This document shows, piece after piece, positions 1,861 through 50,923 of a stretch of 64,000 bases of DNA. Position numbers and translations under genes: made by a program. Origin of the DNA: an uncultured Candidatus Saccharibacteria bacterium (GTDB taxonomy: Bacteria; Patescibacteriota; Minisyncoccia; Minisyncoccales; UBA5738); contig CAYYEP010000001.1 of NCBI GenBank assembly GCA_964470995.1, positions 65,813 through 129,812 of the forward strand, written 5' to 3'. Under the pieces are notes generated by a model. It saw only the letters and a list, made by a program, of their open reading frames with translations. It ran no database searches and was not told the DNA's origin. Within the stretch, counting starts at the first letter, position 1; the number at the start of each line of letters is the position of its first letter.

Positions 1861-2208
1861 TTAACATTCAACGCACTTGGCTTTTTTGTCAACCAGTTTT
1901 ATCATTTTCCCCAGTTTTGGTTCGTCGATGCTTTTTAAATCCGGAATTTTAATGTGCCTCATGGTTTTGCCGCCTCCTTCCAAAAAATCAATCTCTTTTT
2001 TATCCAAACCGACAATGGAAAAGCCGACGTGCACCCTGCTTTTCATCGCGGCAATATAAAACTTGCCGCCGGAAAAAACGATCACGCCCCAGCCGTATTT
2101 TTCTTCGCAGTTTTTTATGGTTTTAAAAAAAATTTCGCGAACCGCCAAAATGATCTCCTTTTGCGGAGATTTTTGCCTGTCTATTTATTGTTTTACTTTT
2201 TCGTCCAT
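1861..2208 (-). pseudogene. DUF1801/YdhG-like protein interrupted by an in-frame TAA at codon 8
   Basis: ATG at 2208 gives MDEKVKQ-TAA(2187-2185)-IDRQKSPQKEIILAVREIFFKTIKN..., continuous with tracked ORF 1861..2148. The stop sits where family members typically have Tyr (xxYIxxQ). Confidence 0.55.
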
Positions 2209-2227
2209 ATTAAAACTTACCGATTTA

Positions 2228-2614
2228 CTAATTGTTGCCGCATCGCGAACAAACCCCCCTATGGACGCAAACAATTCCGCCGCATTTTTTACATGTCCAT
2301 TTTTCCTTTTCTTTTCTTAAAAACATTCTGATCCCGTTATTTTGTATAAACTCCAAATTATCGATCATGCTCATGCCGTATTTTGTTTTGTATCTTTTGT
2401 CCAGATTTTTTAACCTTTGGCAAGGATATTTTTCGCATTTGGCGGAGCAAAACCGCCATTTATTTTTATTTAAAATGCCGCAATTTTTGATGACGCATTT
2501 TTGGCAAGTTCCTATTGCTTCGCCCCTGCATCCCGGACAATGGTTCTTTTTCCGAAAATACGCCATGCACAAAGCGCAGTTCATTCCGCAAGGAGCGATT
2601 AAAGTTGATTTCAT
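2228..2614 (-). CDS. DUF3795-like cysteine-rich protein
   Basis: 128 aa. CGMNCALC...CPGCRG...CQKCVIKNC pattern typical of DUF3795. Confidence 0.7.
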   Translation of the reverse strand: MKSTLIAPCGMNCALCMAYFRKKNHCPGCRGEAIGTCQKCVIKNCGILNKNKWRFCSAKCEKYPCQRLKNLDKRYKTKYGMSMIDNLEFIQNNGIRMFLRKEKEKWTCKKCGGIVCVHRGVCSRCGNN

Positions 2615-2787
2615 CTATTTTTCTTTATTCAATTTGTTGTATTGGCCTTCGGTAACAAAAATTCGGCGATGATTCGGGTCGGGCAATTTTTTGCTCTAAC
2701 TTTTGCCTTTGGCCATAGTTCCAGCCGATAACTTTTCCAGTTTTAAGATCGATGTCAATGTAAAATCCGGTATTTGAATCAATTTTT

Positions 2788-3018
2788 TTAGCCATTGCGT
2801 TTCTTCTTTAGGCTCTTATAAATAATTGACGCGCCCGCAATAGAAACAACCGCTCCGGCAATTTTCCAAGCCAATGATTTGCCGGCGATCGGCTGGCAAT
2901 TGGCGAAGCATAATATCGGTTTGACATGCACAAGATCGGATCCCTGCAAAAACCACAGCAAGCCGAGAAGCAAAAGGGCGGTTCCAAAAAATACGCCGAT
3001 TACTTTTTTCTTGTTCAT
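2788..3018 (-). CDS. small membrane protein
   Basis: 76-aa ORF with two hydrophobic segments and a basic C-terminus. Confidence 0.5.
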   Translation of the reverse strand: MNKKKVIGVFFGTALLLLGLLWFLQGSDLVHVKPILCFANCQPIAGKSLAWKIAGAVVSIAGASIIYKSLKKKRNG

Positions 3019-3155
3019 TGAATTATTATATATTACTTTTAATTACAAAATCTTTAAATCCAAATGCTGCTGAAGGAGCCTGATCCGGCAACGCCAATAC
3101 TCCACTGGGGATAGTCCCCCGAAATACAAGGCGTTTCGCGATCCAACGAAAGTGA

Positions 3156-3428
3156 TTATTTTTCTTTCCAATGCCACCACTTAAGTTTCTCCGGATTAGG
3201 ATTTGGATTTTCGGCAAAGTAAACTGCGGCGCGTAATACATACAAAAGGCAACGGTCTTGGATTTTGCCCGCAAGGCGGTTGGCGGCGTCATATAATTTT
3301 TCCGGTTCCTTGCCTTTCAAATCCGCCACTGATTTAATGCCGATGTTTTGCAAATCCCGGGCGATGCTTTCCCCCACCCCGGGAATGGTTTGCAAATCAT
3401 CGACGTGTTTTATGCTTTGCGTATTCAT
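3156..3428 (-). CDS. helix-hairpin-helix DNA-binding protein (pathogenicity-locus/Cdd1-like)
   Basis: LQTIPGVGESIARDLQNIGIKSVADL HhH motif. Start moved to the internal ATG (MNTQSIKH) at 3428. Confidence 0.6.
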   Translation of the reverse strand: MNTQSIKHVDDLQTIPGVGESIARDLQNIGIKSVADLKGKEPEKLYDAANRLAGKIQDRCLLYVLRAAVYFAENPNPNPEKLKWWHWKEK

Positions 3429-3556
3429 AAATCTATTTACCCGCCAGAATATCGCGGAGCTTTGCCCCGGGGATGAATAGCGGGTAATCAAACTTTTCCT
3501 ACTGCGGCGCCTTGAACGCGCGGTAGTTTATTGCCTGGCTTAACTTCAAATATTTT

Positions 3557-4212
3557 TTACCAGAGGCCGTAGATCGGCCCCGTAAAATAGAAAATGATAA
3601 TGCCGATAGAATTGTAGAAACCATGGGCAAAGATCGCCGCCCATAAATTGTTATCATATTTTAGCTTAAGCCAGCTGAAAAGCAGCGCGTCACCCGTGGG
3701 GACAACTACACCAATGAGCCCCTGCTCAACGTGCGCAAGGCCGAACAACAAGCTGGAAGCTCCAATTGCCAGCATAGTTCCAAACAGGCTCTTTACCCAT
3801 AAACCGGCAAGCAACTTTTGAATATAGCCGCGATAGGCAATTTCTTCGCCCACGGCCGCCAGCGTCCAGGAAAGCGTCAGAAGCAACACCAATTGCCCCA
3901 AGTTACCATTAAGATCGGCAAAACCGCTGTAATCAATGTTCGTTCCGGTCAAGCGGTTCATGACCGGCAAAACCACGCCAACATCAAACAATTGCAAAAA
4001 AACACGGCGGCAAAGGCAAAGCCGATCATACGGCTCCATGAACGGGGGCGTTTGAATCCCAGCGACCGGATATGGCCGCGCCGGATAAACAGCGAAACAA
4101 TCATCAATCCCAAAATAATCAAAGTGGGCTGGAAAAGATCGAGCAGTATCGCCGCCACAACCGCGCCGATTTCAGCAATGGAAACAATCCTCCATATTAT
4201 TATTTGTTCCAT
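3557..4212 (-). pseudogene. CPBP (CAAX) family intramembrane protease split by a -1 frameshift in an A7 run
   Basis: N-terminal ORF 3958..4212 and C-terminal ORF 3557..4039 (EEIAYRGY, FGLAHVEQG, AHGFYN motifs). Adding one base to the A7 run at 3996-4002 joins ...AAVFFLQLFDVGVV.... Confidence 0.65.
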
Positions 4213-4294
4213 AATCCATTTAACTATCGGAATACACGGGCCCTTAGTCCATTTAAAAGGGTTCGACTCTTTTAAATAGCTTTAAGACGCTTGA

Positions 4295-5320
4295 TTACTT
4301 GAGATATTTCTCCTCGTAATATTGCGGGAGTTGGCATTGCACGAAACTGGCGCAATCGTTGGGCGTTTTAATATCAATGGCGTTGATGCATTTGACCATC
4401 TCCACGGGCCAAGCGGGGCATTCTTCCATACAAGCGTTATAGGCGTCATTTAAATCGGCCGGAGTGGCGTCTTCGGTGAAAGCGGCACAGTCCTTATGCC
4501 TTTGGCAGGCATCGCTGCATTTGTCGGAAACCGGCTTTTTAGCCGGCGCGTCCTCCTGGCACAACGCTTTCAATCGTTGCAAAATATCGATTATTTTTTG
4601 CCCGGCATCTTCCATCTGGAAAATCGGTTCGTTGGGATCGATAATGTCGGCCTCATTGATCTCGGGCAGGGGCGGCACATCCGAAGTAAGCTCGGGAACT
4701 TCGGAGCCCGGCCGGCCGGGATTGATTTCGGGCATTTCGGGAATATAATCCCCGGTCTCGATCGATTCGATATTTATCTCGGGGAGAGGCGGCACATCGG
4801 GGGTTAATTCCGGCACCTGCGAACCGGGCGTTTCTTCGATGATTATCGAATTGGGATCGATTTCGGGGAGGGGCGGCACATCGGGGGTGAGCTCGGGTAC
4901 TTCGGATCCGGGAATTATTTCCACGCTGACATCGGGGAGGGGCGGCACATCGGGAGTTAACTCCGGGACTTGGGAACCCGGGCGGTTCGGATCGTTTTGA
5001 TCGCGTATTTCCGGCTCCACATCCGGCAATTTGGGCACGCTATCCAGCCATTCATTTTTTTTGGCATCCAAATCCGCCAGCTTGTTTTTCAATTCCTCAA
5101 TCTTTTGATTAACATCTTTTTTGTTGCCGCAATCCGCGCCGGCGGCCGTTTCCAGGTTTTTTGCCTCATCCAGCAATTTTTGGTAATCTGCGGCAATGCT
5201 TTGCGGACTGTCCAAAGTATTTTTTTTATTTGAATCAAAAAAATGATCCGCCGCAAAATAACCGCCGATCGCCAAAACCACCGCCGCCGCGCCCATTAAC
5301 ACTTTTTGAATTATGCTCAT
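4295..5320 (-). CDS. secreted or anchored protein with five proline-rich tandem repeats and a Cys-rich C-terminal domain
   Basis: N-terminal TM/signal sequence, coiled-coil-like segment, 5x PGS(Q/E)VPELT(P/S)DVPPLP(D/E)(V/I), then 8 Cys in the last ~90 aa. Confidence 0.75.
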   Translation of the reverse strand: MSIIQKVLMGAAAVVLAIGGYFAADHFFDSNKKNTLDSPQSIAADYQKLLDEAKNLETAAGADCGNKKDVNQKIEELKNKLADLDAKKNEWLDSVPKLPDVEPEIRDQNDPNRPGSQVPELTPDVPPLPDVSVEIIPGSEVPELTPDVPPLPEIDPNSIIIEETPGSQVPELTPDVPPLPEINIESIETGDYIPEMPEINPGRPGSEVPELTSDVPPLPEINEADIIDPNEPIFQMEDAGQKIIDILQRLKALCQEDAPAKKPVSDKCSDACQRHKDCAAFTEDATPADLNDAYNACMEECPAWPVEMVKCINAIDIKTPNDCASFVQCQLPQYYEEKYLK

Positions 5321-10081: not shown

Positions 10082-10134
10082 TATAATCTTACGATAAAAC
10101 CGCGACCCAGCAAAATACACAGGACAAAAAATAA

Positions 10135-10731
10135 TCATACTTTGGCCGCGGAAAACAAGACTTTAACCAGCCTTTTGCGCGCGACCGCGTAGAGTAGAAT
10201 TGAGCCCATAATAACGCAATATAACGGGAAAGCGTATTCCGAGGGGGCCCAATTTTTCATGGCAAAAAAAGGCGTTGCCAGATTAACCAAACCGGTGATA
10301 TAAGGAGTGATGTTTTCGGTTTCGGGATAGCGCCACGCCTTGGCCAGCGTCGGAATGGTGGAGAAAAAGTCACTGATGATTGCCAAAAATATCGCCACCA
10401 GCGGATCTTTAGTGAGATACCAGAAGAACAAAGCCAAAATGGAAGACGCGCCGCAAAGATAATCGAAATTATTCAACCGCCAGCCGGTTTTTTTATTGGC
10501 AAACGAAGCGGCAAAAACGATAAGCGAACCAACGCCGGAGGCGAAAGCCGGCAAAGCCGGCCAGCGCGCCCCGTCGGTAAACGCCGCGGCCGCCGCGATT
10601 AGAGGCACTATCCCCCATAACAACCAGGTTACCCGGTTGGGTTTTGCCTCCCCTTTTAGCGTCGCTTTGGCGTAAACGAGATTACCCCAGAATTGCAAAA
10701 TTACTCCGAAGATAACCAAATATTCAAGCAT
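10135..10731 (-). CDS. integral membrane protein, unknown function
   Basis: 198 aa with about 6 hydrophobic helices. Confidence 0.65.
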   Translation of the reverse strand: MLEYLVIFGVILQFWGNLVYAKATLKGEAKPNRVTWLLWGIVPLIAAAAAFTDGARWPALPAFASGVGSLIVFAASFANKKTGWRLNNFDYLCGASSILALFFWYLTKDPLVAIFLAIISDFFSTIPTLAKAWRYPETENITPYITGLVNLATPFFAMKNWAPSEYAFPLYCVIMGSILLYAVARKRLVKVLFSAAKV

Positions 10732-10836
10732 AATTTAGTACAAAAGATTTACCTCGTCCGATTTTCATTCCGCTTTTTTAAACGGCACACACCGATTTTT
10801 TTTATAGCCCTGATCGCTTGGCGGCGGGGCAGCTTA

Positions 10837-11232
10837 TTACTCATAATTGCCGTGTGATTCGGGTTGGTGCAAGATTTTTTCCACTTTCAGTTTTTTTTCG
10901 CCCTTTGGGGTATTAACGGAGATCGTATCGCCGATCTTATAGCCCAGCAAGGCGCAACCGATCGGAGAAAGCACAGATATCTTCCGTTGGCTAATATCCG
11001 CGGCCTCGGGAAAAACAAGCCAGTATTCAAGCTCGTCCTTGGATTCAATATCGCAAAAAACCACCAGCGAATTCATAGTTATCACATCGCCGGGAATATC
11101 CCGCGGCTCGACGATCGTTGCCCGATTCAATTCGGCGAGCAGAGCTTCGTCATGATTGTCGTGGCGCTGTTTTTTGTTTATTATCTCGACCAATTTTTTA
11201 TAGTCGTTTTTGGTTATGTATATTGGATTCAT
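10837..11232 (-). CDS. GreA/GreB-family protein (Rnk-like regulator of nucleoside diphosphate kinase)
   Basis: 131 aa. The C-terminal VSVLSPIGCALLGYKIGDTISVNTPKGEKKLKVEKI matches the GreA/B C-terminal domain. Confidence 0.75.
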   Translation of the reverse strand: MNPIYITKNDYKKLVEIINKKQRHDNHDEALLAELNRATIVEPRDIPGDVITMNSLVVFCDIESKDELEYWLVFPEAADISQRKISVLSPIGCALLGYKIGDTISVNTPKGEKKLKVEKILHQPESHGNYE

Positions 11233-11262
11233 ATCAATAATTAAAAACCGGCCTTTTAATTG

Positions 11263-11301
11263 CCGGTTGTTTGCTGCGCGTTCGCGCTGACAAACAACCG
11301 G
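11263..11301. other. long GC-rich hairpin between the rnk-like gene and the tRNA locus
   Basis: CCGGTTGTTTG...GCGCG-TT-CGCGC...CAAACAACCGG. The 11-bp outer stem is perfect. Function unknown (processing site or terminator?). Confidence 0.5.
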
Positions 11302-11440
11302 TCAGGAACCGGTTTTAAGAGAGACCTTTTGGTTGGAGTTAATCATCCGCATAAGCTTAGCTATGGTATAGCAAGAAAGAAAAAAACAAGCAAACAAATT
11401 TTTTATCGAGCCTACGAAATTGAGCGAGCTTAAAATATAA

Positions 11441-11498
11441 GCTGGCCAAGGTCGCACCTTGGCATGCTCGCCGAGGAACGACCTTAAAAAACAAATAC
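11441..11498. repeat. extended-hairpin intergenic repeat, copy 2 of 3
   Basis: AAGGTCGC-A-CCTTGGC-loop-GCCGAGG-A-ACGACCTT-AAAAAACAAATAC. Confidence 0.65.
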
Positions 11499-11518
11499 TA
11501 AACGTTCGGTTACCGTTG

Positions 11519-11583
11519 CGGAGGGTGGAGGATGCTTCAAGCTTGCTTTTCGCAAGTTCAAACCTCCGAGGGGCTGTCCCCAA
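11519..11583 (-). pseudogene. orphan 3' fragment of tRNA-Ser (variable arm to discriminator) with an insertion in the T-loop
   Basis: TTGGGGACAGCCCCTC-GGAGG-TTTGAA[CTTGCGAAAAGCAAG]CTTGAAGCAT-CCTCC-ACCCTCC-G. There is no 5' half. Confidence 0.6.
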
Positions 11584-11587
11584 CCTA

Positions 11588-11848
11588 TTTAATTCGTGAA
11601 AAAGCGGAGGGGGCGAGATTCAAACTCGCGGTGGCTTTTGGCCACAACGGTTTTCTTCGCTTTGCTGCGGCGTCAATTTCATTGCGGAGGGTGGAGGATT
11701 CGAACCTCCGAGGAGTTTCCCCCAACTGGTTTTCAAGACCAGCGCTATAGGCCACTCAGCCAACCCTCCGCAATGAAATTGACCAAGACCATCTCCTTTC
11801 CTACTGGTCACAACGCTCAGACACCCCTCCGCTTTTTCACGAATTAAA
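11588..11848 (-). other. outer tRNA-Ser-like unit interrupted by a 129-nt insert that carries the functional tRNA; flanked by an 18-nt perfect inverted repeat
   Basis: 5' part GGAGGGGTG...ATGGTCTTG and 3' part AAAACCGT...GCGAGTTTGAATCTCGC-CCCCTCC-G. Flanks TTTAATTCGTGAAAAAGC (11848-11831) and GCTTTTTCACGAATTAAA (11605-11588). Confidence 0.55.
11685..11769 (-). tRNA. tRNA-Ser (anticodon UGA), no encoded CCA
   Basis: Manual cloverleaf: GGAGGGT/ACCCTCC acceptor, D-loop GAGTGGCCTAT, anticodon arm CTGGT-CTTGAAA-ACCAG, long variable arm, GGAGG-TTCGAAT-CCTCC, G73. Confidence 0.85.
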
Positions 11849-12005
11849 GTTTTCCCCGCCTACGCGGGACTTCCTGCTGGTCGCAAACCAGCGCCATGAC
11901 TCCCTCGATTACGCGGGAACCATCAAAAAAGCACTCAACCAACCATCCCTACTCCATACCGGTTTTACCGGCATGGATACAATTAATCACGCAATACGGT
12001 AAAAA

Positions 12006-14564
12006 TCAAGCTTGTTTTTTCCCGAATAGCAGCCATTTGAACGGTTCAAACCACAGGGCGCCCAGCACGCCTAAGGCCGCGGCCCGGGCAAGATCGGCGG
12101 GCATTACCGGATCAAAATGGAATACCTGGCGCAAGGGCGGGTATAGCAACACCGCAACCAACATCATCAGGGCGGCGGCAAAGACCCAAAGAAATGCTCT
12201 ATTGCCGTTAATAAATACCTTGAACGGATTACCCCAGCTTAAATTGGCGACGATCAAAAACAGGTTGGCAACCAATATCGCAACAAACGACAGGGCGCGG
12301 ATCTGGCCTTCGCTTTGGCCGGAATGGAGAGCGGCCATATAAACAATAAATACCGCCACGAGCACCCCCAATCCCTGCAATAAGCTGGTCCAGAAGGCGC
12401 GGCGGCCAAAAAGAGACCGGCTTAAACGGCGCGGCGGCCGGTTCATAATATTTTTTTCGGCGGGCTCATTTTCGAAAACTACCGAACAAGCCGGGTCGAT
12501 AACCAATTCAAGAAACGCGATATGCGCCGGGAAAAATACTACGGGCAGATTCAACGCTACGGGTAAAAACGACATCCCCGCGATCGGAATATGCACCGCA
12601 AAAATATAGGCGATAGCCTTTTTAATGTTATCGAAGACCGTTCGGCCCATACGAATGGCGCGGACGATCGAAGTGAAATCATCGTTAAGCAGGACAAGGT
12701 CGGCGGTTTCGCGAGCAACATCGGTGCCGCGCTCCCCCATGGCAATACCGATATGGGCGGCTTTGAGCGCCGGGGCGTCATTAACACCATCTCCGGTCAT
12801 GGCAATGGTCATACCCTTATCCTTGAGCGCGTTGATAAGCAACATTTTTTGTTCGGGAACTACACGCGCAAAAACGTTCACGGTGTCCAATTTTTTAACA
12901 AGGTCGGCGCGGGCCATAGACTGGAGTTCCATGCCAGTTAGACATTCGTCCGGATTCTTAAGGCCGATCTGGCGCGCGATCTGGCGCGCGGTGGCGGGAT
13001 AATCGCCGGTGATCATACAAACCCGGACTCCGGCCGTATAACACTCTTTAACGGCCGCCGGAACCGACGGCCGTACCGGATCTTCAAAACCAAGCAGACC
13101 CACGAATTCAAAATCAAAATCATGCTGGCCGCTGGCATTAAGCTTATCTTTGGCAACCCCGGCAACCGCCACCCCCAAAAGCCGCAAGCCATCGGAAAGC
13201 AGCGGTTCCATGCGTTGCATAAGTTTTGTTTTTTCGGGTTCGCCAAGGTGGCATAGTTCGGCGATCGATTCGGGGGCGCCCTTGGCAGCAACCACATAAC
13301 GCCCGCCGTCGCCCGTTTCCCAAACGTGCGAAAGCGCTAAAAGGTTGCCCGAAAAAGGATATTCTTTTATTAATCTCCAATTTGAATGCAAATGGCTGGT
13401 TGATTTGAGGAGAAATTCGCCGGTTTTTTTAATTTCTTTTTCCAGCGGGTCGAACGGGTCGGTTTGGCTGGCAAGAATACCGTATTCAAGCAGTTCTTCG
13501 TATTGTTCGGGAATGATATTGCCGCCGGCGCCATAATCATCGACATTTAACGAACCCTCCATTACGGCCAGTTTTTTCAAGCGCATCTGATTAAAAGTGA
13601 TCGTACCGGTTTTGTCGGAACAAAGGATATCGGCGGCGCCCAGCATTTCAATGGCGGCGGTGTTGCGCGTCAAAACTTTTCTTTTTGATATGCGCCAGGC
13701 ACCAATGGTCATAAACAGCAACATTACCACCGGGAATTCTTCGGGCAACATAGACATACTGATCGTCAAACCGTAAAGAACCCCCTGCAACAGATTGCCG
13801 TTGGCCGCAACATAGATCGCGACAGTTGCAATACAAAGACCCAAGCCGATGATGCCGAAAAATTTTGTAAGCCGGGCGGTCTCGGATTTTAAATGAGTCC
13901 CTTCATCGGCAACCGCCTGCAGAGACTTTCCGATCTTGCCCATTTCGGTATTGATACCAGTGGCAACCACTTTGGCAAAGCCGTGTCCCCGGTTTATGAG
14001 CGTCCCGGAATAAATAAACTGCAGATTATCCCCTCCGGGATGATCGCCGGCGATAAGCCGTTTTCCGTCCCAAACCGATTTTGAAACGGCGACCGACTCA
14101 CCGGTAAGTAAAGATTCATCAACCGATAAATTAACCGACTCTAAAACCGCGGCGTCGGCGGCAACGCGGTCGCCTTCGCGCAGGATCATAATATCCCCCG
14201 CCACCACTTCCCGGCCAGCAACGCGTTTTTGCGCGCCGTCGCGGATTACTAACGCCCGGGGACTGGATAAATCGCGCAAAGCTTCAAGGGCGCGTTCGGT
14301 CTTGCGCTGCTGGTAAAAAGTGATGCCCACAATAAAAAAAATGAAAGTGGAAAGTATCAAGGAATCGCTCAATTCTCCCAAGTAAAAATAGATCATCCCG
14401 GCGACAACAAGCAATAAAAGCATAGGCTCTTTAACCACTTCGATCATAATTAAAAAAAGGCCGCGTTTTTTTTGCGACGGCAATTCGTTATAGCCGTCTT
14501 TTACCAGCCGCTCCCGGGCTTGTTTGGAGGTAAGCCCTTCAATCATTTTGGGATCGTTAAACAT
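12006..14564 (-). CDS. cation-transporting P-type ATPase (P2-type, Ca2+/Mg2+-like)
   Basis: 852 aa with DKTGTITFN phosphorylation site, TGESVAV, MITGDYPATA and TGDGVNDAPALK. Confidence 0.9.
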   Translation of the reverse strand: MFNDPKMIEGLTSKQARERLVKDGYNELPSQKKRGLFLIMIEVVKEPMLLLLVVAGMIYFYLGELSDSLILSTFIFFIVGITFYQQRKTERALEALRDLSSPRALVIRDGAQKRVAGREVVAGDIMILREGDRVAADAAVLESVNLSVDESLLTGESVAVSKSVWDGKRLIAGDHPGGDNLQFIYSGTLINRGHGFAKVVATGINTEMGKIGKSLQAVADEGTHLKSETARLTKFFGIIGLGLCIATVAIYVAANGNLLQGVLYGLTISMSMLPEEFPVVMLLFMTIGAWRISKRKVLTRNTAAIEMLGAADILCSDKTGTITFNQMRLKKLAVMEGSLNVDDYGAGGNIIPEQYEELLEYGILASQTDPFDPLEKEIKKTGEFLLKSTSHLHSNWRLIKEYPFSGNLLALSHVWETGDGGRYVVAAKGAPESIAELCHLGEPEKTKLMQRMEPLLSDGLRLLGVAVAGVAKDKLNASGQHDFDFEFVGLLGFEDPVRPSVPAAVKECYTAGVRVCMITGDYPATARQIARQIGLKNPDECLTGMELQSMARADLVKKLDTVNVFARVVPEQKMLLINALKDKGMTIAMTGDGVNDAPALKAAHIGIAMGERGTDVARETADLVLLNDDFTSIVRAIRMGRTVFDNIKKAIAYIFAVHIPIAGMSFLPVALNLPVVFFPAHIAFLELVIDPACSVVFENEPAEKNIMNRPPRRLSRSLFGRRAFWTSLLQGLGVLVAVFIVYMAALHSGQSEGQIRALSFVAILVANLFLIVANLSWGNPFKVFINGNRAFLWVFAAALMMLVAVLLYPPLRQVFHFDPVMPADLARAAALGVLGALWFEPFKWLLFGKKQA

Positions 14565-16801: not shown

Positions 16802-16980
16802 AATCTCCCCGGGGACAAACGCGACGGGATCTAGGTTGAACCGCCTTCCGCTTTGTTCCAGGCGTCCCCCGCATACTGCGAGGGAAAATTTTCATCCCCC
16901 CCGCTTCCTCCCGATTACGGGAGGCGCCCCGCCGCAGTCGCGGCGGAAAACGCGCGGGGTATTAAGATTTGTTCAATAAA
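16802..16980. repeat. GC-rich multi-hairpin intergenic repeat, copy A (full length, ~179 nt)
   Basis: Near-identical to 34532-34705; the last 83 nt are identical. Contains hairpins CCTCCCG-ATTA-CGGGAGG and CCGCCGC-AGTC-GCGGCGG enclosed by CCCCGC/GCGGGG. Confidence 0.8.
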
Positions 16981-17034
16981 TAAAATTAAAGAGGTTGAAG
17001 CATTATATCCCGAAGGATTGCCCAACCTCTAAAT

Positions 17035-17635: not shown

Positions 17636-17664
17636 GAATTGAAAACACCGTTTGACACGGTGTT
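17636..17664 (-). terminator. putative native terminator of tRNA-Ser(GCU), now separated from it by the integrated element
   Basis: Minus sense AACACCG-TGTCAAA-CGGTGTTTTC immediately follows the attL core. Confidence 0.5.
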
Positions 17665-17672
17665 CAGCGAAA

Positions 17673-17856
17673 GGCGGTGTTTTTTGGACGAAGTTCGAAC
17701 ATTTTTTGAGCAAAACTCCGAATGATTGCGCGCTTCGCGCGCAAAACCGAAACGCTCGGGCGGGCAAAAAGGAAGGGAGTTGGGGGGAAGGAATTTTTGC
17801 CCGCCCTCGCTTTCCGCCGCCGCCGAATTTCGTGCCAACAAAGTTGGCGCGCCGCC
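17673..17856 (+). repeat. inverted repeat IR1-left (P' arm of the att site), ~180 bp, highly structured
   Basis: Reverse complement of 20092-20276, with 1 substitution and 1 single-base indel across the ~156-nt collinear part and a divergent but still self-pairing distal hairpin. Confidence 0.85.
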
Positions 17857-17864
17857 TTTAATTT

Positions 17865-19730
17865 CTAAACTGTAAACCCAACTAATTTAACTAACAGCCA
17901 CGAAATAATCAAGAATGAAATTGAAAAAACGGGAACAAAAACATATTTCATTTTATCTTTTGGCCGGAATGACCAAGATGAATATCCAGCCAATTTCAAT
18001 TGTTCAAATAGATTTTTATCCTCGGGTTTGATTCTTTTGATTATGAAGCTCACAATTAAAGCAGTAATCGGCAAAACATAAATTATCAAAAGAGGAATGA
18101 TGATATCAGAATCTAAATATCTCAGGGAGTAACTAATTTCGCGGATTAGTGATGACAACGCAAATAAACCGAAAACCAGAAAAGGTATGGCAACGAAAAA
18201 TAAAATTGTAGCAACTCTCCTTTTCCATAAATATCCTTTTTGTTTTATTTCGGCAAGCAGAGGTTCTACGCTTTCATTTTTATTTTTCGTGCCAACCAAT
18301 ACTGTCGTTATCAATAATCCTAAAATTGTTAGAAAATTAGACAAACCAATCAAGCCGAGTTTTACCGGCTTTCTTCTTAAATCCTTGAAAATAATCAAGC
18401 CCGCCAAAATTCCAGCGAGTATTGAACTTAAAATAAACAGGATTATTGCGCTTACTATCGGGTGTTTGGCAATAAAAGTTGAGTAGTAAGTTTTGGCGGG
18501 TGCTTGCGCTTTTAGCCACAAGTCATCAGTGAAGAATTTTGACGGCGCGTTGATTTCTATTTTTGTATATTTAATGTTTTGATTTTGTCCGCTATAAAAG
18601 TTTTTCAAGTCATCGGCAAAACTGGCATAGCTATCAATATAATATTCAGTTTTTGTGTAGCTTTCAATATCTTGAAAAACATTTGGCGTAACATGGCCAA
18701 TTACTCTGATTGTTGCCGGAACTGTTTTGCTACCATAGACGCTTGTCGGAAGAAGTGGAAAATATATTTCTTTCGTGGGGAATGTTACAAATACTCCCTT
18801 TTGGTTAGCTAAGTTCTGATTTTTGTTATAGGTATCTACGATTATTGACGGGTCATTTTGAATAGCTTGCGTTAATTCCTGCAAAACAGTTCCGCCTTGT
18901 TGGGATTTCAAATAATCAGTTGAATTGTTAGCTTGATTAAATTCGGGATATTTTTGTTTTAAGCTATTTACTAAGTCAAAAAATTTTGGATAGCGGTATT
19001 GACTCGAAAAGTAGATATAAAGATTATTTTTTATATCGTCAGCCGAAATGATTTTTTCTGGCGAGCTTATCCATGAAGCGACAAAAGAAAATTCTTTGCC
19101 GATATAATTATCCAAAACTGGAATCGAGCCACTTTCAATTTTTAACCCCTTATTTTTCAAATAATCGTAGAGTCCGTTGGCTGTTTTTGCAGTAATTATT
19201 TCTGATGAAATTCCTTCTTTGTCTAAATGTTCGTAAACAACAACATCCGGTACAATTCCCTTACCGATTCCTTGTGGTGCTGCACCCAAAGCATTATCCA
19301 TGCCTCTGCCCGCCGAGAGAGTCCCATAAAAAGAAACAAAAGGAATTGTATAAAGTTGCGTCATTTGTAAAAACTTCGTTGTATCGTCAAGATTTGATTT
19401 CGCTTTTCTTGAAACTTCTTCACCGCTTAATCCGGGCAGACTTTTTACTACATCAATAGCAACTTTATTCGGATCGGCAGGAACGGGGAAAAGCCAAACC
19501 ACTCCTTTGCTGTTTTCTCCTTCAAGTCCAACGCTGATAATCATTTTTTGCAATCCGTTATTATAATTAATAAACGCTTGCTGATTACTTTCATTTGAAT
19601 AATCCCAACGGTCTGAATAAGGATCGGGTTTCATCATCATTCCGTCTGCAAAAACTGACTTTGGAATAAAGGAAGCTATCGCCAAAAATGTAATTAGCGA
19701 TAATGTAATAAATGAGAGTGATTTTTTCAT
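17865..19730 (-). CDS. cargo: large exported protein with a C-terminal 5-TM anchor (possibly DUF2330-like)
   Basis: 621 aa: signal peptide MKKSLSFITLSLITFLAIASF, ~400-aa extracytoplasmic region, five C-terminal hydrophobic helices. AT-rich codon usage. Confidence 0.75.
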   Translation of the reverse strand: MKKSLSFITLSLITFLAIASFIPKSVFADGMMMKPDPYSDRWDYSNESNQQAFINYNNGLQKMIISVGLEGENSKGVVWLFPVPADPNKVAIDVVKSLPGLSGEEVSRKAKSNLDDTTKFLQMTQLYTIPFVSFYGTLSAGRGMDNALGAAPQGIGKGIVPDVVVYEHLDKEGISSEIITAKTANGLYDYLKNKGLKIESGSIPVLDNYIGKEFSFVASWISSPEKIISADDIKNNLYIYFSSQYRYPKFFDLVNSLKQKYPEFNQANNSTDYLKSQQGGTVLQELTQAIQNDPSIIVDTYNKNQNLANQKGVFVTFPTKEIYFPLLPTSVYGSKTVPATIRVIGHVTPNVFQDIESYTKTEYYIDSYASFADDLKNFYSGQNQNIKYTKIEINAPSKFFTDDLWLKAQAPAKTYYSTFIAKHPIVSAIILFILSSILAGILAGLIIFKDLRRKPVKLGLIGLSNFLTILGLLITTVLVGTKNKNESVEPLLAEIKQKGYLWKRRVATILFFVAIPFLVFGLFALSSLIREISYSLRYLDSDIIIPLLIIYVLPITALIVSFIIKRIKPEDKNLFEQLKLAGYSSWSFRPKDKMKYVFVPVFSISFLIISWLLVKLVGFTV

Positions 19731-19745
19731 AATTTTATTTTACGA

Positions 19746-19943
19746 TTATTTTATTAACTCATCAACGCTAACCTCAAGAGCTTTCGCGATTTTCTTGAGG
19801 GTATCCAGCGTTGGATTCTGGTTTTTACCAGCTTCAATTTTGATAATTGTATTATTGGCGACATCGGCCAATCTCGCCAACTTTTCTTGGGAAAGCCCTT
19901 TGGCTTCCCTTAACCTTCTTAAATTTTTAGTAATGTTTGACAT
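19746..19943 (-). CDS. cargo: XRE-family helix-turn-helix transcriptional regulator
   Basis: LRRLREAKGLSQEKLARLADVANNTIIKIEAGKNQNPTLDTLKKIAKALEVSVDEL. Confidence 0.85.
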   Translation of the reverse strand: MSNITKNLRRLREAKGLSQEKLARLADVANNTIIKIEAGKNQNPTLDTLKKIAKALEVSVDELIK

Positions 19944-20091
19944 AACTTATATCTTAGTAGTAGAATTAAAGTATTAGGATATATTTCCTTTCAACTACTA
20001 TAATGCTACACCAAAAATTAAGAAAAGTAAATAATGGGAGAAAAATTGTTGTGTGCGCACGGGTGGGTGGGGCAAACACAACTCCATTTTT

Positions 20092-20276
20092 GGCGGCGCA
20101 TTTTGCAAAGCAAAATACGAAATTCGGCGGCGGCGGAAAGCGAGGGCGGGCAAAAATTCCTTCCCCCAACCCCCTTCCTTTTTGCCCGCCCGAGCGTTTC
20201 GGTTTTGCGCGCGAAGCGCGCAATCATTCGGAGTTTTGCTCAAAAAATGTTCGAACTTCGTCCAAAAAACACCGCC
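20092..20276 (-). repeat. inverted repeat IR1-right (inverted P' arm)
   Basis: See 17673-17856. Core CCGCC at 20272-20276. Confidence 0.85.
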
Positions 20277-20404
20277 AATTTTCACTTTTTGTGAAATCGT
20301 AAGAAACTGCCTCGGCACAAAGCGCCTCGGCATGGTATTTTTCCGCAATTTTGAAAGCATTTTTGAAATCCAAAACCAAAGTGCGGTCGGTAATGCGGAA
20401 GTTC
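20277..20404 (-). repeat. inverted repeat IR2-left: inverted copy of the last 128 nt of the recombinase P arm
   Basis: 100% identical to the reverse complement of 21890-22017. Together with 20092-20276 it forms a complete inverted attP-like junction (ORF 20224..20439 = ...NFRITDRTLVLDF...SENWR+CFLDEVRTFFEQNSE*). Confidence 0.85.
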
Positions 20405-20519
20405 GCCGTGCAAAGCACGGGCAAAATGAAATTTTGCAAACCAATCTTTTTTCTTTCGCTTTCAGCGAAAGGTTGAGCGTATTTTTCTTTGATTGCCCAA
20501 AAACTAATTTCAAAACAAT

Positions 20520-22247
20520 ATGGACAACATAAATTTACAAACCAAAAAGATTTTTCTCTATGCTCGTAAATCCACGGACGAGCCAGAGCGACAAATTCTT
20601 TCCATTGAAGCGCAACTTTTTGAATTACGAGAATTTGCCAAAAAGGAAGGATTAAATATCGTCCGTGAATTCGTGGAGAGCAAAACCGCCAAAGAGCCGG
20701 GCAGAGAGATTTTTAACAAAATGGTGGCAAGCATAGAGAAAAATGAAGCCGAAGGAATTTTAGCGTGGCACCCTGACCGCTTAGCTCGAAATAGCATAGA
20801 CGGCGGACGGATAATCTATCTCGTAGATACTGGGAAGATTACCACGCTAAAATTTCCAACTTTTTGGTTTGATCCGACACCGCAGGGAAAATTTATGTTG
20901 TCCATTGCTTTTGGGCAATCAAAATATTATGTGGATAATCTTTCGGAAAATATAAAGAGGGGTATTCGCCAGAAATTGCGAAATGGAATATGGCCCGCTT
21001 GGGCGCCACTTGGCTATATAAACGGCAAAAACGCCCGCTGTATCGCCGTGGACAAAGAAAAGGCAAAGTATATCAAGCGGGCTTTTGAAATGTATGCAAC
21101 TGGCGAATACCCCCTCGCTCAAATCCGAAAGATTATCAATTCCTTGGGCTTGGTTGGCAAGAAAGGCAAAATGCTTTCCGTTTCAAATTATCAGTATATG
21201 CTGAAAAATAAAATCTATTACGGAATGATTGAGTATAACGGCGAAATGTATGACGGAAAGCATGAACCGATTATCACAAAGAAACTTTTTGATTCCGTTC
21301 AAGAAGTGATGGTGAGAAAGTCCAAACCGAAAACGCCAAAATTGAAACCGTATGTGTACAGAGGATTTTTCCGTTGCGGAGAGTGCGGTTGTTTCATTAC
21401 CACCGAAACGCAAAAAGGACATAACTATTTGCGTTGTACCAAACGGAAAAATCCTTGCACGCAAAGATATGTTCGCGAAGAAATCATCACTTCTCAAATA
21501 AAGGAGGAAATCAAAAAAGTTTCTTTGTCTTCCGTTTGGGCAAACGCTTCAATCAATTATTTTGAAAATGAAAAAATGAAAATTGCCCAAACGGAAAGCT
21601 CTTTCGCCCAAAAAGCGAGAAATGAGCTTGTGGAGATAGAAACAAAGCTTGATCGTTTGCTTGATTTACAACTAGACGGCAATTTGTCGCAAGTGGAATA
21701 TACCACCAAAAAGCACAAACTCATTCTCGCTAAAAAAGATTTGGAAGAAAAAATCACCGCTTTTGGGCGAAAGAGCAATAATCGGTTCGAACTTGCCATT
21801 GCCTTTCTAAAAGACGCCAACCAAGCCGAAAAATACGCTCAACAAGAAAATCCCGAAAGGATTCGGGATTTTCTCAAAAAGATTGGTTCGAACTTCCGCA
21901 TTACCGACCGCACTTTGGTTTTGGATTTCAAAAATGCTTTCAAAATTGCGGAAAAATACCATGCCGAGGCGCTTTGTGCCGAGGCAGTTTCTTACGATTT
22001 CACAAAAAGTGAAAATTGGCGGAGGGGGCGGGATTCGAACCCACGGACGGCTTTAAGACCGTCAGAGGTTAGCAACCTCTTGCAATGCCGCTATGCGACC
22101 CCTCCACAGATTGATCTGCGATCAAATTGCAAATTCCAAACCCTAAGCACCAATTATCAAGATAATACAAAACGACATTCCAATAATAACGTTAAAGACC
22201 GCTTTGGTCAATCTCAACCCCGAAGAGCGCCTGCGTATTCCCCGTAG
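20520..22247 (+). CDS. large serine recombinase (integrase)
   Basis: N-terminal resolvase domain (IFLYARKSTDEPERQILSIEAQ), recombinase domain, Zn-ribbon CGECGC...CTKRKNPC, coiled-coil region. The ORF runs through tRNA-Ser and stops only at 22247. Confidence 0.85.
   Translation: MDNINLQTKKIFLYARKSTDEPERQILSIEAQLFELREFAKKEGLNIVREFVESKTAKEPGREIFNKMVASIEKNEAEGILAWHPDRLARNSIDGGRIIYLVDTGKITTLKFPTFWFDPTPQGKFMLSIAFGQSKYYVDNLSENIKRGIRQKLRNGIWPAWAPLGYINGKNARCIAVDKEKAKYIKRAFEMYATGEYPLAQIRKIINSLGLVGKKGKMLSVSNYQYMLKNKIYYGMIEYNGEMYDGKHEPIITKKLFDSVQEVMVRKSKPKTPKLKPYVYRGFFRCGECGCFITTETQKGHNYLRCTKRKNPCTQRYVREEIITSQIKEEIKKVSLSSVWANASINYFENEKMKIAQTESSFAQKARNELVEIETKLDRLLDLQLDGNLSQVEYTTKKHKLILAKKDLEEKITAFGRKSNNRFELAIAFLKDANQAEKYAQQENPERIRDFLKKIGSNFRITDRTLVLDFKNAFKIAEKYHAEALCAEAVSYDFTKSENWRRGRDSNPRTALRPSEVSNLLQCRYATPPQIDLRSNCKFQTLSTNYQDNTKRHSNNNVKDRFGQSQPRRAPAYSP
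22017..22105 (-). tRNA. tRNA-Ser (anticodon GCU), CCA encoded
   Basis: GGAGGGG-TC-GCA-TAGCGGCAT-TGC-A-AGAGG-TTGCTAA-CCTCT-long variable arm-GTGGG-TTCGAAT-CCCGC-CCCCTCC-G-CCA. Confidence 0.85.
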
Positions 22248-34531: not shown

Positions 34532-34705
34532 AATCTCCCCGGGCTTACCCGCGGGATATTGGTTGAACCGCCTTCCGCCTTGCTCCAGGCGTCCTCCGCA
34601 TACTGCGGGGGAAAATCTTCACTCCCCGCTTCCTCCCGATTACGGGAGGCGCCCCGCCGCAGTCGCGGCGGAAAACGCGCGGGGTATTAAGATTTGTTCA
34701 ATAAA
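34532..34705. repeat. GC-rich multi-hairpin intergenic repeat, copy B (full length)
   Basis: See 16802-16980. Confidence 0.8.
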
Positions 34706-34761
34706 AAATTTTCTGATACTTGCTATTTAGTATTTGCAATTTGGCTATCGGTTACCGGAGA

Positions 34762-48727: not shown

Positions 48728-48826
48728 TTTCGAGTGATTTATGAATCGCAATTTAAGGTTTATGAATAAATTTAAATTCGTATTTATTCATAAATCATGA
48801 ATTGTAAATCATGATTCGTTGTTTTT

Positions 48827-49189
48827 GGGGATGTAAGGCTTCGATGGTTTATCGGCCAACCGGCCGCAAGCCAAGTTGCTAAATCTTGTAAAAATTAGCG
48901 AAAATCAAAAGTGCCAAATCGAATACATTCGCTTTTAGCGCTCCGGAATTAGTTTACGCCTAGTAGACTGCCGGTGTCCGGCAGACGGATTCTCCATTAA
49001 ATTTGCCGGGCATAACCTTTTGGAGATAGATGGTTCTCCCCTGCCCCAGGGAATCATTGAAAACAAAACGGGCAAAGGACTTGGAGTTTTTGTCGGATTT
49101 CTTATTCCAGGCCCCAAACAAACCCGACTAAGCTTGTAGAAACCGCTTGACTGGTTTCCCAGATACGGGTTCAAGTCCCGCCGTCTCCA
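48827..49189 (+). ncRNA. ssrA: tmRNA (SsrA)
   Basis: 5' GGGGATGTAAGGCTTCGA and 3' GGGTTCAAGTCCCGCCGTCTCCA form a tRNA-Ala-like domain with G3:U70. Tag ORF ...AKSNTFAFSAPELVYA ends in TAG TAG (48998-49003). CCA is not encoded. Confidence 0.9.
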
Positions 49190-49253
49190 CATAATTTTGC
49201 AAATCAAAATTCCATTTAATAACTGATAGTTTATCAGTCAAATAGAAAAAGGA

Positions 49254-50509: not shown

Positions 50510-50579
50510 GAATCTCCCCGGGACAAACGCTACGGGATCTTGGTTGAACCGCCTTCCGCTTTGCTCCAGGCGTCAATAA
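50510..50579. repeat. GC-rich intergenic repeat, copy C (short form: 5' module joined directly to the terminal AATAAA)
   Basis: aatctccccgggacaaacgctacgggatcttggttgaaccgccttccgctttgctccaggcgtc|aataaa. Confidence 0.7.
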
Positions 50580-50602
50580 AAAAGCACAACGTGTCCAGCG
50601 GT

Positions 50603-50923
50603 TTATTCCGGCTTCCGTTGCGCTTTAATGTTTTTGCGGCTCTTGCGGCTGGCCATATAATAATCCTTCCGTGTCCCGCGGGTGACGTATTGTATCCACT
50701 TGATAATATGAACGTCATACTTCTCCGCCGATTTACATTTGCGCCAAGGTTCTTCGACGCAAATCACGTCCTCTCCCCCGCGGGTAACTATAGCATTCAA
50801 ATAAACCATCACACGGCCGTTTGCAAAGACACTGACCGCTTCGATCTGACCCAGTGCGGTAAGAAAACGATAATCATCAGGGGTTTCAATCAAGTTCACT
50901 ATTAAGCAAGCATCGTCTACCAA
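50603..50923 (-). CDS. hypothetical protein
   Basis: 106-aa ORF with a basic C-terminal tail. Confidence 0.45.
   Translation of the reverse strand: MVDDACLIVNLIETPDDYRFLTALGQIEAVSVFANGRVMVYLNAIVTRGGEDVICVEEPWRKCKSAEKYDVHIIKWIQYVTRGTRKDYYMASRKSRKNIKAQRKPE

Follow-up and report, generated by a model that had tools for sequence, protein, structure and literature searches.

A serine-recombinase integrative element in a tRNA-Ser gene of Patescibacteria with an inverted internal attP and a spare integrase gene end

The integrated element and its inverted middle block

The 64-kb stretch of DNA analysed here (the window, whose coordinates are used throughout) belongs to an uncultured Candidatus Saccharibacteria bacterium and contains, at positions 17673 to 22022, a 4.35-kb integrative element of the large serine recombinase (LSR) type inserted in the 3' end of a tRNA-Ser(GCT) gene. 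GC content is about 50% in the flanks and 32-42% inside the element, and we regard its anatomy, set out in Table 1, as near certain. The element carries only three genes, for the integrase (int), an XRE-family regulator and one membrane protein, and a middle block (20092-20405) separates int from the other two. Inverted-repeat search aligned 20272-20405 with 21889-22022 (134 nt, 100% complementary; the B arms) and 20117-20276 with 17673-17833 (96% and 91% complementary in two blocks offset by a 1-nt indel; the A arms), and the whole A copy at 20092-20276 is the inverted counterpart of 17673-17857. The repeats overlap by a 5-nt core, GGCGG at 17673-17677 and 22018-22022 and CCGCC at 20272-20276, and the block is therefore the exact reverse complement of the B-core-A junction that is formed by joining 22022 to 17673. 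Chance was ruled out as the origin of these repeats, as the next-best inverted repeats in the whole window measure only 30-37 nt at 71-78%.

An earlier note, made from the letters of this DNA, had described the block as a complete inverted attP lying within an integrated element, and both the repeat coordinates and the core overlap agree with that description. Its pairing of the arms also stood; its length for the P arm, 128 nt, did not, as this arm comprises 129 nt plus the 5-nt core, which is included in the arms as given above. Alignment of the two A copies reproduced the differences that the note had listed, namely one substitution (GGGAG versus GGGGG), one G indel and an exchanged distal hairpin that pairs with itself in either copy (GCCAAC-AAA-GTTGGC versus ATTTTGC-TTT-GCAAAAT); beyond the exchanged hairpin, GCGCCGCC is present in both copies. 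Folding of the A arm yields stable hairpins (z = -2.2). Simple tandem duplication or integration, which would give a direct attP between two full copies, was ruled out as the source of the block, and so was a known RNA family within it, since the Rfam matches consisted of tRNAs and a transfer-messenger RNA (tmRNA) only. An independent small protein encoded by a minus-strand open reading frame (ORF) at 20224-20439 was judged unlikely: the frame has no Pfam match and only a TTG/GTG start without a Shine-Dalgarno sequence, and Elusimicrobia relatives have a stop right before the arm.

The integrase contains Resolvase (PF00239, 1e-19, residues 12-157), Recombinase (PF07508, 9e-17) and Zn_ribbon_recom (PF13408, 5e-08) domains, has the serine motif YARKSTDE, with R16, S18 and T19 invariant in 25 homologues, and aligns to the C-terminal domain of the A118 integrase (4KIS and 6DNW, E 2e-06); matches to CcrB and XisF fell below the NCBIfam cut-offs. 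Its reading frame crosses the B arm and the core and then runs into the antisense strand of the tRNA gene, giving a protein of 575 amino acids in the window, of which residues 1-501 are native and residues 502-575 are read from the antisense tRNA strand and beyond. When the core is followed by the A arm instead, the frame stops 15 codons on (...WR-CFLDEVRTFFEQNSE*) and the protein has 516 amino acids. Residues W500-R501 come from the crossover core, which is GGCGG here and TGGCGG in most relatives, and the P' arm encodes the conserved last helix (CFLDEVRTFFEQN...), the stop codon and terminator hairpins. The integrase gene thus spans its own attP, and integration therefore removed the conserved last helix and fused antisense tRNA sequence in its place. 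Within the integrated element, attP and the 3' end of the integrase gene are each intact in the middle block alone; on the minus strand, B2, core and A2 together encode the native last 59 integrase residues. The fused replacement starts with RRGRDSNP and has 3 to ~79 residues among hosts; its first residues derive from the universal T-arm of the tRNA, and the swap of tails is deterministic.

An AlphaFold2 model of a homologue with the native tail (mean predicted local distance difference test score, pLDDT, 75.8) displayed coiled-coil helices at residues 338-385 and 391-441 and, in the cassette-encoded part, a beta-hairpin (456-470) and two helices (472-489 and 498-513) at a pLDDT of ~78-92, with the crossover falling at the start of the last helix. 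Because of this model, together with the open frames, the codon periodicity and the conserved tail described in the next section, the B-core-A reading is predicted to be the functional form of the protein, and the integrase of the window is without a structured, conserved element.

To describe the geometry of the attachment sites, 105 junctions from relatives were aligned. The core TGGCGG is shared by attP (B/A), attL (flank/A), attR (B/tRNA) and unoccupied tRNA-Ser genes, and the palindrome TTCGAAC, a motif of the T-arm, is separated from the core by 11 nt on the tRNA side and by 16 nt in the A arm. In LSR sites, the motif bound by the zinc-ribbon domain is 5 bp nearer the centre in attB than in attP half-sites (bp 11-19 versus 16-24; Rutherford et al., PMC3783163), and the same 5-bp shift of TTCGAAC therefore marks the A arm as a P-type and the tRNA as a B-type half-site, the shift being taken from one half-site pair because the chromosomal left half-site is not conserved. 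Junctions that violate this polarity (flank/B, A/tRNA, A/A or B/B) were never seen among the relatives; a palindromic crossover dinucleotide, which would allow either orientation, was ruled out, as the junctions respect polarity. The window also holds an unoccupied tRNA-Ser(TGA) gene (11684-11769, minus strand), 8.6 kb from the internal attP, whose 3' end is TTGCGG rather than TGGCGG and which is without an encoded CCA; this one-base core mismatch may be the reason that it has not recombined with the internal attP.

Table 1. Positions of the features of the element and its insertion site in the window.
Feature	Position	Strand	Basis
Probable original terminator hairpin of tRNA-Ser(GCT), AACACCG-N7-CGGTGTT	17640-17668	-	sequence
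attL core GGCGG, junction of chromosomal left flank and A arm	17673-17677	+	repeat overlap
A1 arm, P' half-site	17678-17857	+	repeat search and alignment
Cargo gene, predicted secreted or membrane protein of 621 amino acids	17865-19730	-	ORF list
XRE-family helix-turn-helix regulator, 65 amino acids	19746-19943	-	Pfam HTH_3, 2e-18
Control region upstream of XRE, within the cargo segment	19944-20091	.	sequence
A2 arm, inverted copy of A1, with intact tail codons, stop and terminator hairpins	20092-20271	-	
Core of the intact internal attP, CCGCC on the plus strand	20272-20276	-	
B2 arm, inverted int codons 458-500	20277-20405	-	repeat search
Presumed promoter or 5' leader of int, 114 nt	20406-20519	+	conservation
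Large serine recombinase ORF, 575 amino acids in the present state	20520-22247	+	Pfam
B1 arm, P half-site, int codons 458-500, 100% identical to B2	21889-22017	+	
attR core GGCGG, reverse complement of the tRNA 3' end ...CCGCC(A)	22018-22022	+	
tRNA-Ser(GCT), integration target	22017-22105	-	ARAGORN, Rfam

The A1 arm contains the 15 integrase tail codons plus stop (CFLDEVRTFFEQNSE*), a GC hairpin, a long hairpin (GGGCGGGCAAAAA...TTTTTGCCCGCCC) and the distal hairpin. The putative terminator of the tRNA gene now stands 4.35 kb from that gene, a position to which it was likely displaced by the insertion. With regard to the cargo, the XRE gene named in the earlier note was confirmed by its Pfam match, and the label of membrane protein for its neighbour is reasonable in view of the signal-peptide-like N-terminus and the several hydrophobic segments near the C-terminus of the translated 621-residue frame, which had no match in Pfam, PADLOC or NCBIfam. 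Profile searches against PADLOC and NCBIfam showed that the XRE protein resembles control proteins of restriction-modification (RM) systems, CapH and RstR. In other assemblies, the cargo gene of the window was found only on contigs of ~2 kb that break at the arms, and a search of these assemblies for flipped contexts of its protein returned only such contigs. A phage origin of the element was ruled out, with only three weak matches in IMG/VR. A promoter-like site (TTGACA-18-TAGAAT, 19937-19966, plus strand) is directed at int; it was identified by its match to the consensus alone, and no clear promoter of int emerged from promoter scans. The 114-nt leader of int is 86-100% conserved among relatives, often above the coding sequence. 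Part of it (20466-20502) is 73% complementary over 37 nt to 20909-20945, 400 nt inside the int coding region, which could be long-range RNA pairing or chance.

The element family, its arms and rearranged loci

At least 577 relatives were found in a scan of one genome per species and at least 569 in a scan of metagenome contigs, and the protein database held more than 6,000 clusters at E <= 1e-100. The best matches (90-96% amino acid identity) come from metagenome-assembled genomes (MAGs) labelled as many different Patescibacteria classes. Labels among loci L001-L080 (L-numbers denote related loci outside the window) include Gracilibacteria, Saccharibacteria, Paceibacterota, Moraniibacteriota and Magasanikbacteria, and integrases of this identity also occur in MAGs labelled Gammaproteobacteria, Verrucomicrobiota, Dehalococcoidia, Caldisericales and 'Pacearchaeota archaeon'; such labels reflect either an extreme host range or frequent mis-binning of short element-bearing contigs. 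When the segments of the window were mapped onto relatives, the same order recurred: an A copy at the left end, 1.6-6.3 kb of variable cargo, the inverted A-core-B block, the 114-nt leader, int with B in its 3' end, and an antisense tRNA-Ser gene of any anticodon. The earlier note had proposed looking for internal inverted att copies in other genomes, and among the 115 loci with enough sequence to test, the inverted arm occurs in 108: it measures at least 120 nt in 82 (133-134 nt in 58 of these) and is cut by a contig end in 26, leaving 7 with none. The arm is kept in Elusimicrobia relatives at 60-63% identity, in the 53%-identical second element of L104, in relatives that target tRNA-Gln and in the complete genome AP024682. 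The dual-attP layout is the conserved ground plan of a very large LSR family, not a peculiarity of one locus.

Many contigs of relatives stop 217-280 nt upstream of int, inside the block; these ends, like the ~2-kb cargo contigs, are the expected effect of a real repeat on assemblers. The cargo of relatives often consists of defence genes, including RM systems, helicases and AAA ATPases, and no replication genes were seen in it. Only int and XRE are shared across the family, and no candidate directionality factor is conserved in it. Three tandem arrays (L011, L065 in AP024682, and L104) each hold two elements of different subfamilies (53-67% identity) at one tRNA-Ser gene; every member has its own inverted attP, and the upstream integrase reads into the A arm of its neighbour, acquiring the tail CAFEKIRTDF....

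Within a locus, the arms were 100% identical in 30 loci and 97-99.9% identical in 28, compared with 73-97% between loci, a pattern of concerted evolution. In the 24 loci with larger arm differences, the changes cluster in the 45 nt next to the core, where a set of alleles recurs (...SYDFTKSENWR, ...SFNFAECKTWR, ...SNLDFSKCDSWR and ...SYDFAKSTIWR), each of which is also the integrase 3' end in other loci. These 45 nt (window equivalent 21973-22017) form the P half-site and at the same time encode integrase residues 486-499. Across the related loci, a few discrete P half-site alleles recur and are mixed between both copies within one element, among nearly identical integrases, which therefore work with quite different P half-sites. 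In all 26 of the 26 loci examined, the middle copy can be read without a break from the boundary of the arm, across the core and into a tail and stop of the native type, including loci whose arms differ by 8-15%. The amino acid sequence of the tail ([CS][FL]LxxVRxFFxxNP) is conserved from Patescibacteria to Elusimicrobia, and its codons show a periodicity (entropy of 0.57, 0.33 and 0.97 at positions 1, 2 and 3, respectively) that persists in those left free by the search pattern. The spare cassette is, in sum, preserved as coding sequence.

We classified int copies by the sequence beyond the core on both sides. The state of the window, with attP upstream and tRNA downstream, was found in 59 loci, and a tRNA gene lies downstream, with any sequence upstream, in ~107 int copies in all. 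Seven copies have attP on both sides, in tandem arrays such as L011, L065 and L104; three have the tRNA gene upstream and the native tail downstream (L110, L095 and L085); two have tRNA genes on both sides (L021 and L162); and in two a tRNA gene lies upstream and the contig ends downstream (L032 and L140). The three loci of opposite polarity are reliable: L110 sits on a 543-kb contig with arms 85.8% identical, the arms of L095 are 86.5% identical and L085 has no arm, and the divergence of the arms makes the assemblies of L110 and L095 unambiguous. Both insertion polarities exist in nature.

At the two loci with tRNA genes on either side, a cargo-less int module lies between two inverted tRNA-Ser genes, which carry the anticodons GCT and TGA in L162 (33-1940) and are identical tRNA-Ser(GGA) genes in L021 (7669-9587). 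Both flanks of the module in L021 are chromosomal, with rpoD and dnaG on one side and the gene for pyruvate phosphate dikinase on the other. The two loci are consistent with the predicted product of recombination between an internal attP and a second tRNA-Ser attB, the identical tRNA pair of L021 falling outside this account. The DnaG primase (1997-4909) and pyruvate phosphate dikinase (10115-13747) of L021, which belongs to a Patescibacteria MAG, both match intein-splicing domains.

The same integrase with the same cargo was seen in both relative orientations between samples. Between L081 and L082, identity is 100% over 1,983 and 4,019 nt, and the switch falls at the end of the A arm; L087 and L091 are oriented differently from L088, L089, L090, L092 and L093, and these k=141 contigs are not graph ambiguities because 6 of 56 positions differ between the repeats at the cargo ends. 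Three contigs of 2,008-2,170 nt (L083, L084 and L094) end exactly at the branch point, which suggests that both continuations were present in those samples. L087 is an array that has itself been rearranged, and a remnant attR adjoins the XRE end of its cargo; at 11499-11693, ~60 nt of B arm, a core AGCGG and a tRNA-Ser(CGA) gene are fused to the last 56 nt of the A arm, and it looks as if the int module had been deleted from an insertion of opposite polarity. The position of XRE was scored with a hidden Markov model built from the XRE proteins of the family, which located the gene beside the middle block, in divergent orientation to int, in 49 of 59 loci; in the other 10, it lies at the distal cargo end. 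In most of these 10, the contig begins within arms of 100% identity, and the L108 contig is a misassembled palindrome. The comparison of 49 with 10 was for this reason rejected as a measure of cargo flips. The earlier note's account of the block as the boundary of two segments flanked by inverted repeats is borne out by the window, and relatives show other relative orientations of these segments. Orientation variants thus exist among assemblies from different samples.

Possible roles of the internal attP

We propose a dual-attP, two-module design in which recombination would invert rather than delete and would toggle the C-terminus of the integrase, and we hold the chances for this design to be about even. 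Two inverted copies of a cassette, which runs from the last 44 int codons over the core and tail codons to the stop and hairpins, separate an int module from a module of XRE plus cargo, and in the window the copy at the 3' end of int was used for integration and is split into attL (17673...) and attR (...22022). The excised circle would carry two equivalent inverted attPs, either of them usable for integration, with two insertion polarities as the outcome. Use of the attP at the int 3' end would produce the state of the window, with a truncated integrase facing the tRNA gene; use of the other would leave int intact, downstream of and co-oriented with the tRNA gene, with an intact attP at its 3' end. 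Since the copies are inverted, recombination between them would isomerise the element and could not split or delete it.

For an inversion in the chromosome, we favour RecA-type exchange on the 134-nt and ~185-nt arms, because the A118 integrase performs no attP x attL or attP x attR reaction, and its attP x attP reaction runs at less than 5% of the attP x attB rate (PMC3556126); in the circle, a low-efficiency attP x attP reaction by the integrase could serve. If the int segment flipped, the gene would be joined again to the spare cassette, which would restore the native C-terminus and place int downstream of and co-oriented with the tRNA gene. Since the int ORF crosses the core, such a flip would change the C-terminus of the integrase and its orientation to the tRNA gene only, and not the cargo. 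It could plausibly act as a stochastic, low-frequency reactivation of an integrase crippled by its own integration, a tentative step to which we give roughly one chance in three. The internal attP would remain recombinogenic with other tRNA-Ser genes, and the excess of the window state would be that of a quiet, safe state, the combination of native integrase and live attP being unstable or harmful, as the two-tRNA loci may illustrate. A more far-reaching version, which we consider possible but doubtful, is that the dual inverted attP is an evolved, directionality-factor-free control of the integrase, in which integration through the cassette at the int 3' end would strip off the conserved C-terminal helix and silence or re-programme the enzyme, with the spare cassette stochastically reconstituting the gene by inversion and keeping a live attP in the chromosome. 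If true, this design would underlie the spread of one integrase (at least 90% amino acid identity) across many Patescibacteria classes and would drive inversions and deletions between tRNA-Ser genes in tiny genomes.

Several observations weigh against the proposed design. The evidence for inversion consists of assembled contigs from separate samples; many of the alternative orientations are short-read contigs bounded in 100% identical arms, through which the assembled path is possibly arbitrary, and the orientation of L108 is a clear assembly artefact. The tRNA gene lies downstream of ~107 int copies and upstream of 7, and XRE is proximal in 49 loci and distal in 10, a dominance of the window arrangement from which it follows that flipping is rare, selected against or absent. 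Fused-state integrase genes are intact and conserved in more than 50 genomes, which would also fit an active fused protein (for example, one acting in excision), and the spare cassette would then need another explanation. A live chromosomal attP is a risk in itself, which some benefit would have to outweigh.

Among the alternatives, an assembly artefact, that is, a chimeric join of integrated and excised forms, has next to no probability. Assemblers do break or misjoin at these repeats, as the many contigs ending 217-280 nt upstream of int and the palindromic L108 demonstrate, but the same layout appears in more than 80 independent assemblies from different pipelines, including contigs of 200-775 kb and complete genomes, and the A arms here differ at three places while the B arms differ by 3-15% in many loci; the earlier note's case against a duplication made in assembly, drawn from the differences between copies, is upheld by this recurrence and divergence. 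That note had also suggested a switch of cargo expression, with the recombinase flipping the cargo or the int segment, and we find such programmed phase variation highly improbable. Inverted repeats flank both segments, both orientations of the cargo were observed, and the defence systems common in the cargo of relatives are a frequently phase-variable class. The region upstream of XRE, however, lies inside the cargo segment and moves with it, and both A arms have the same strong hairpins, so that a flip would change no promoter-gene link; 49 of 59 loci have the cargo placed as in the window, with ambiguous assemblies making up most of the exceptions. Flipping by the recombinase while the element is integrated is argued against by the LSR precedent of A118, which excludes attP x attL and attP x attR (PMC3556126); more plausible routes would be recombination of the RecA type between the arms or an attP x attP reaction in the circle. 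The block might instead be a functionless ancient inverted duplication of the int 3' end that is homogenised by gene conversion, with accidental rearrangements. Conversion from a selected int 3' end could by itself keep the spare open and similar, and decayed examples exist (L085 without an arm and the remnant in L087), but the 133-134-nt length of the arm is constant down to 53-63% identity and across tRNA targets, and the arm has been lost in just 7 of 115 loci. As a rule, long inverted repeats are unstable, and a live attP endangers the host (L021 and L162), so persistence without benefit is unlikely, and we accord this explanation little probability.

Two further explanations give the block a role other than reconstituting the integrase gene. 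In the first, it would regulate in cis, and its ability to serve as attP would be incidental: at 115 nt upstream of int it could bind integrase as an operator, it could terminate or insulate between int and the promoter region of XRE, or, if transcribed, it could pair as a 134-nt antisense RNA with the int 3' end in a long duplex. Its place between the XRE control region and the highly conserved 114-nt int leader, the strong promoter-like site at 19937-19966 pointing through it toward int and the stable hairpins of the A arm speak for such a role. An operator or terminator would nevertheless need neither a 129-nt exact coding copy nor an intact frame, both of which are kept in 26 of 26 loci, and the loci with two tRNA genes and those of opposite polarity indicate that the site is used in recombination; we therefore think a purely regulatory block unlikely. 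The other explanation addresses excision in a family that conserves no directionality factor. An integrase dimer on the internal attP might act as a built-in cofactor, its free coiled-coil motifs unlocking auto-inhibited attL and attR complexes, or directionality might be set by the tail swap itself, integration being the task of the native protein and excision that of the tail-less one. The fused-state integrase genes are intact in most genomes, and the swap is deterministic, with RRGRDSNP supplied by the universal T-arm. Both versions are models only, and no LSR is known to use a third site; the fused tails, at 3 to ~79 residues, look undesigned, and the tail swap alone would leave the second attP without a role. 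Both versions together seem to us distinctly improbable. Finally, a fold-back single-stranded attP of the kind known from CTX-phi was dropped, as a serine recombinase acting on it would break the chromosome.

Relation to known systems and further observations in the window

By every sequence-level criterion tested, the element classifies as an LSR integrative element. It shares with characterised LSR elements and prophages (A118, Bxb1, phiC31, SPbeta and SCCmec CcrAB) the Resolvase, Recombinase and zinc-ribbon domains, the long coiled coil, a short common core, hybrid attL and attR sites and the 5-bp motif shift between attB and attP. It departs from them in targeting the 3' end of tRNA-Ser (tRNA-Gln in one branch) with the T-arm as half-site, in carrying attP inside the int ORF and a second complete, inverted attP just upstream of int, and in having no evident directionality factor, and sequence similarity to them is weak (E 2e-06 for A118).

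Integrases of the archaeal SSV1 type (type I) are tyrosine recombinases whose attP lies inside int, so that integration into a tRNA gene partitions int into large N- and C-terminal parts. The present element likewise has attP in the integrase ORF, targets a tRNA gene and alters its integrase gene on integration, but it uses a serine recombinase and loses only the last 15-18 codons; to our knowledge, a spare inverted 3' end is lacking in SSV-type elements. In the yeast 2-micron plasmid, the FRT sites of the FLP recombinase lie inside two long inverted repeats. The circle deduced by joining 22022 to 17673, which is known from the integrated sequence alone, would similarly consist of two unique segments and two long homogenised inverted repeats, each with a recombinase target, with the recombinase encoded in one unique segment and two isomers expected and apparently observed. 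Unlike the plasmid, the element lives integrated, employs a serine rather than a tyrosine recombinase, includes the end of the recombinase gene in the repeat and has no replication gene or origin, and hence no basis for Futcher-type amplification.

Intragenic invertons recode proteins (bioRxiv 10.1101/2023.03.11.532203). As in those, one repeat arm lies inside a coding sequence and a flip would exchange the C-terminus; unlike those, the arms have at least 134 nt instead of 14-30 nt, and with an LSR an attP x attR inversion is not expected. Despite these likenesses, the element is a member of none of the SSV1-type, 2-micron and intragenic-inverton classes. The invertases Hin, Gin and Cin are small serine enzymes of ~190 amino acids with a C-terminal helix-turn-helix, sites of ~26 bp and an enhancer. 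The location of the recombinase gene inside an invertible segment recalls Hin, whereas an LSR of 516 amino acids, arms of at least 134 nt and no known enhancer or Fis-type features set the element apart from all three. CTX-phi has two inverted attP sites ~90 nt apart that form a forked hairpin, on which the XerCD tyrosine recombinase performs single-strand exchange; here too, two inverted attP-type sites occur in one integrative element, but they are separated by 1.5 kb, and recombination proceeds through double-strand breaks.

A full-text literature search, whose incomplete coverage leaves room for an earlier description, yielded no LSR element with a conserved internal inverted attP and no account of the Patescibacteria tRNA-Ser element family, and the combination of an inverted second attP with a spare integrase gene end is apparently a design undescribed before. 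Serine integrases are valued in genome engineering as simple and directional, and the element bears on the question of how natural elements without a directionality factor get out again. It is among the most promiscuous small elements of Patescibacteria, hosts with poorly known routes of gene exchange, its target is a universal sequence (the acceptor and T-arm of tRNA-Ser), and its internal attP appears able to rearrange host chromosomes.

Elsewhere in the window, a full-length tmRNA is encoded at 48827-49192 on the plus strand (Rfam, 104.6 bits; not reported by ARAGORN), just downstream of a 36-nt imperfect inverted repeat at 48736-48817. A GC-rich intergenic repeat of ~160 nt with internal hairpins occurs in three copies (16825-16983, 34552-34708 and 50533-50608), two of them 88-99% identical and the third partial, and one copy stands 700 nt left of the element. 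Diverged tandem repeats of ~70-84 nt with 64-76% identity lie at 4657-4998, within the gene of a repeat-containing protein, a minus-strand ORF of 341 amino acids (4295-5320).

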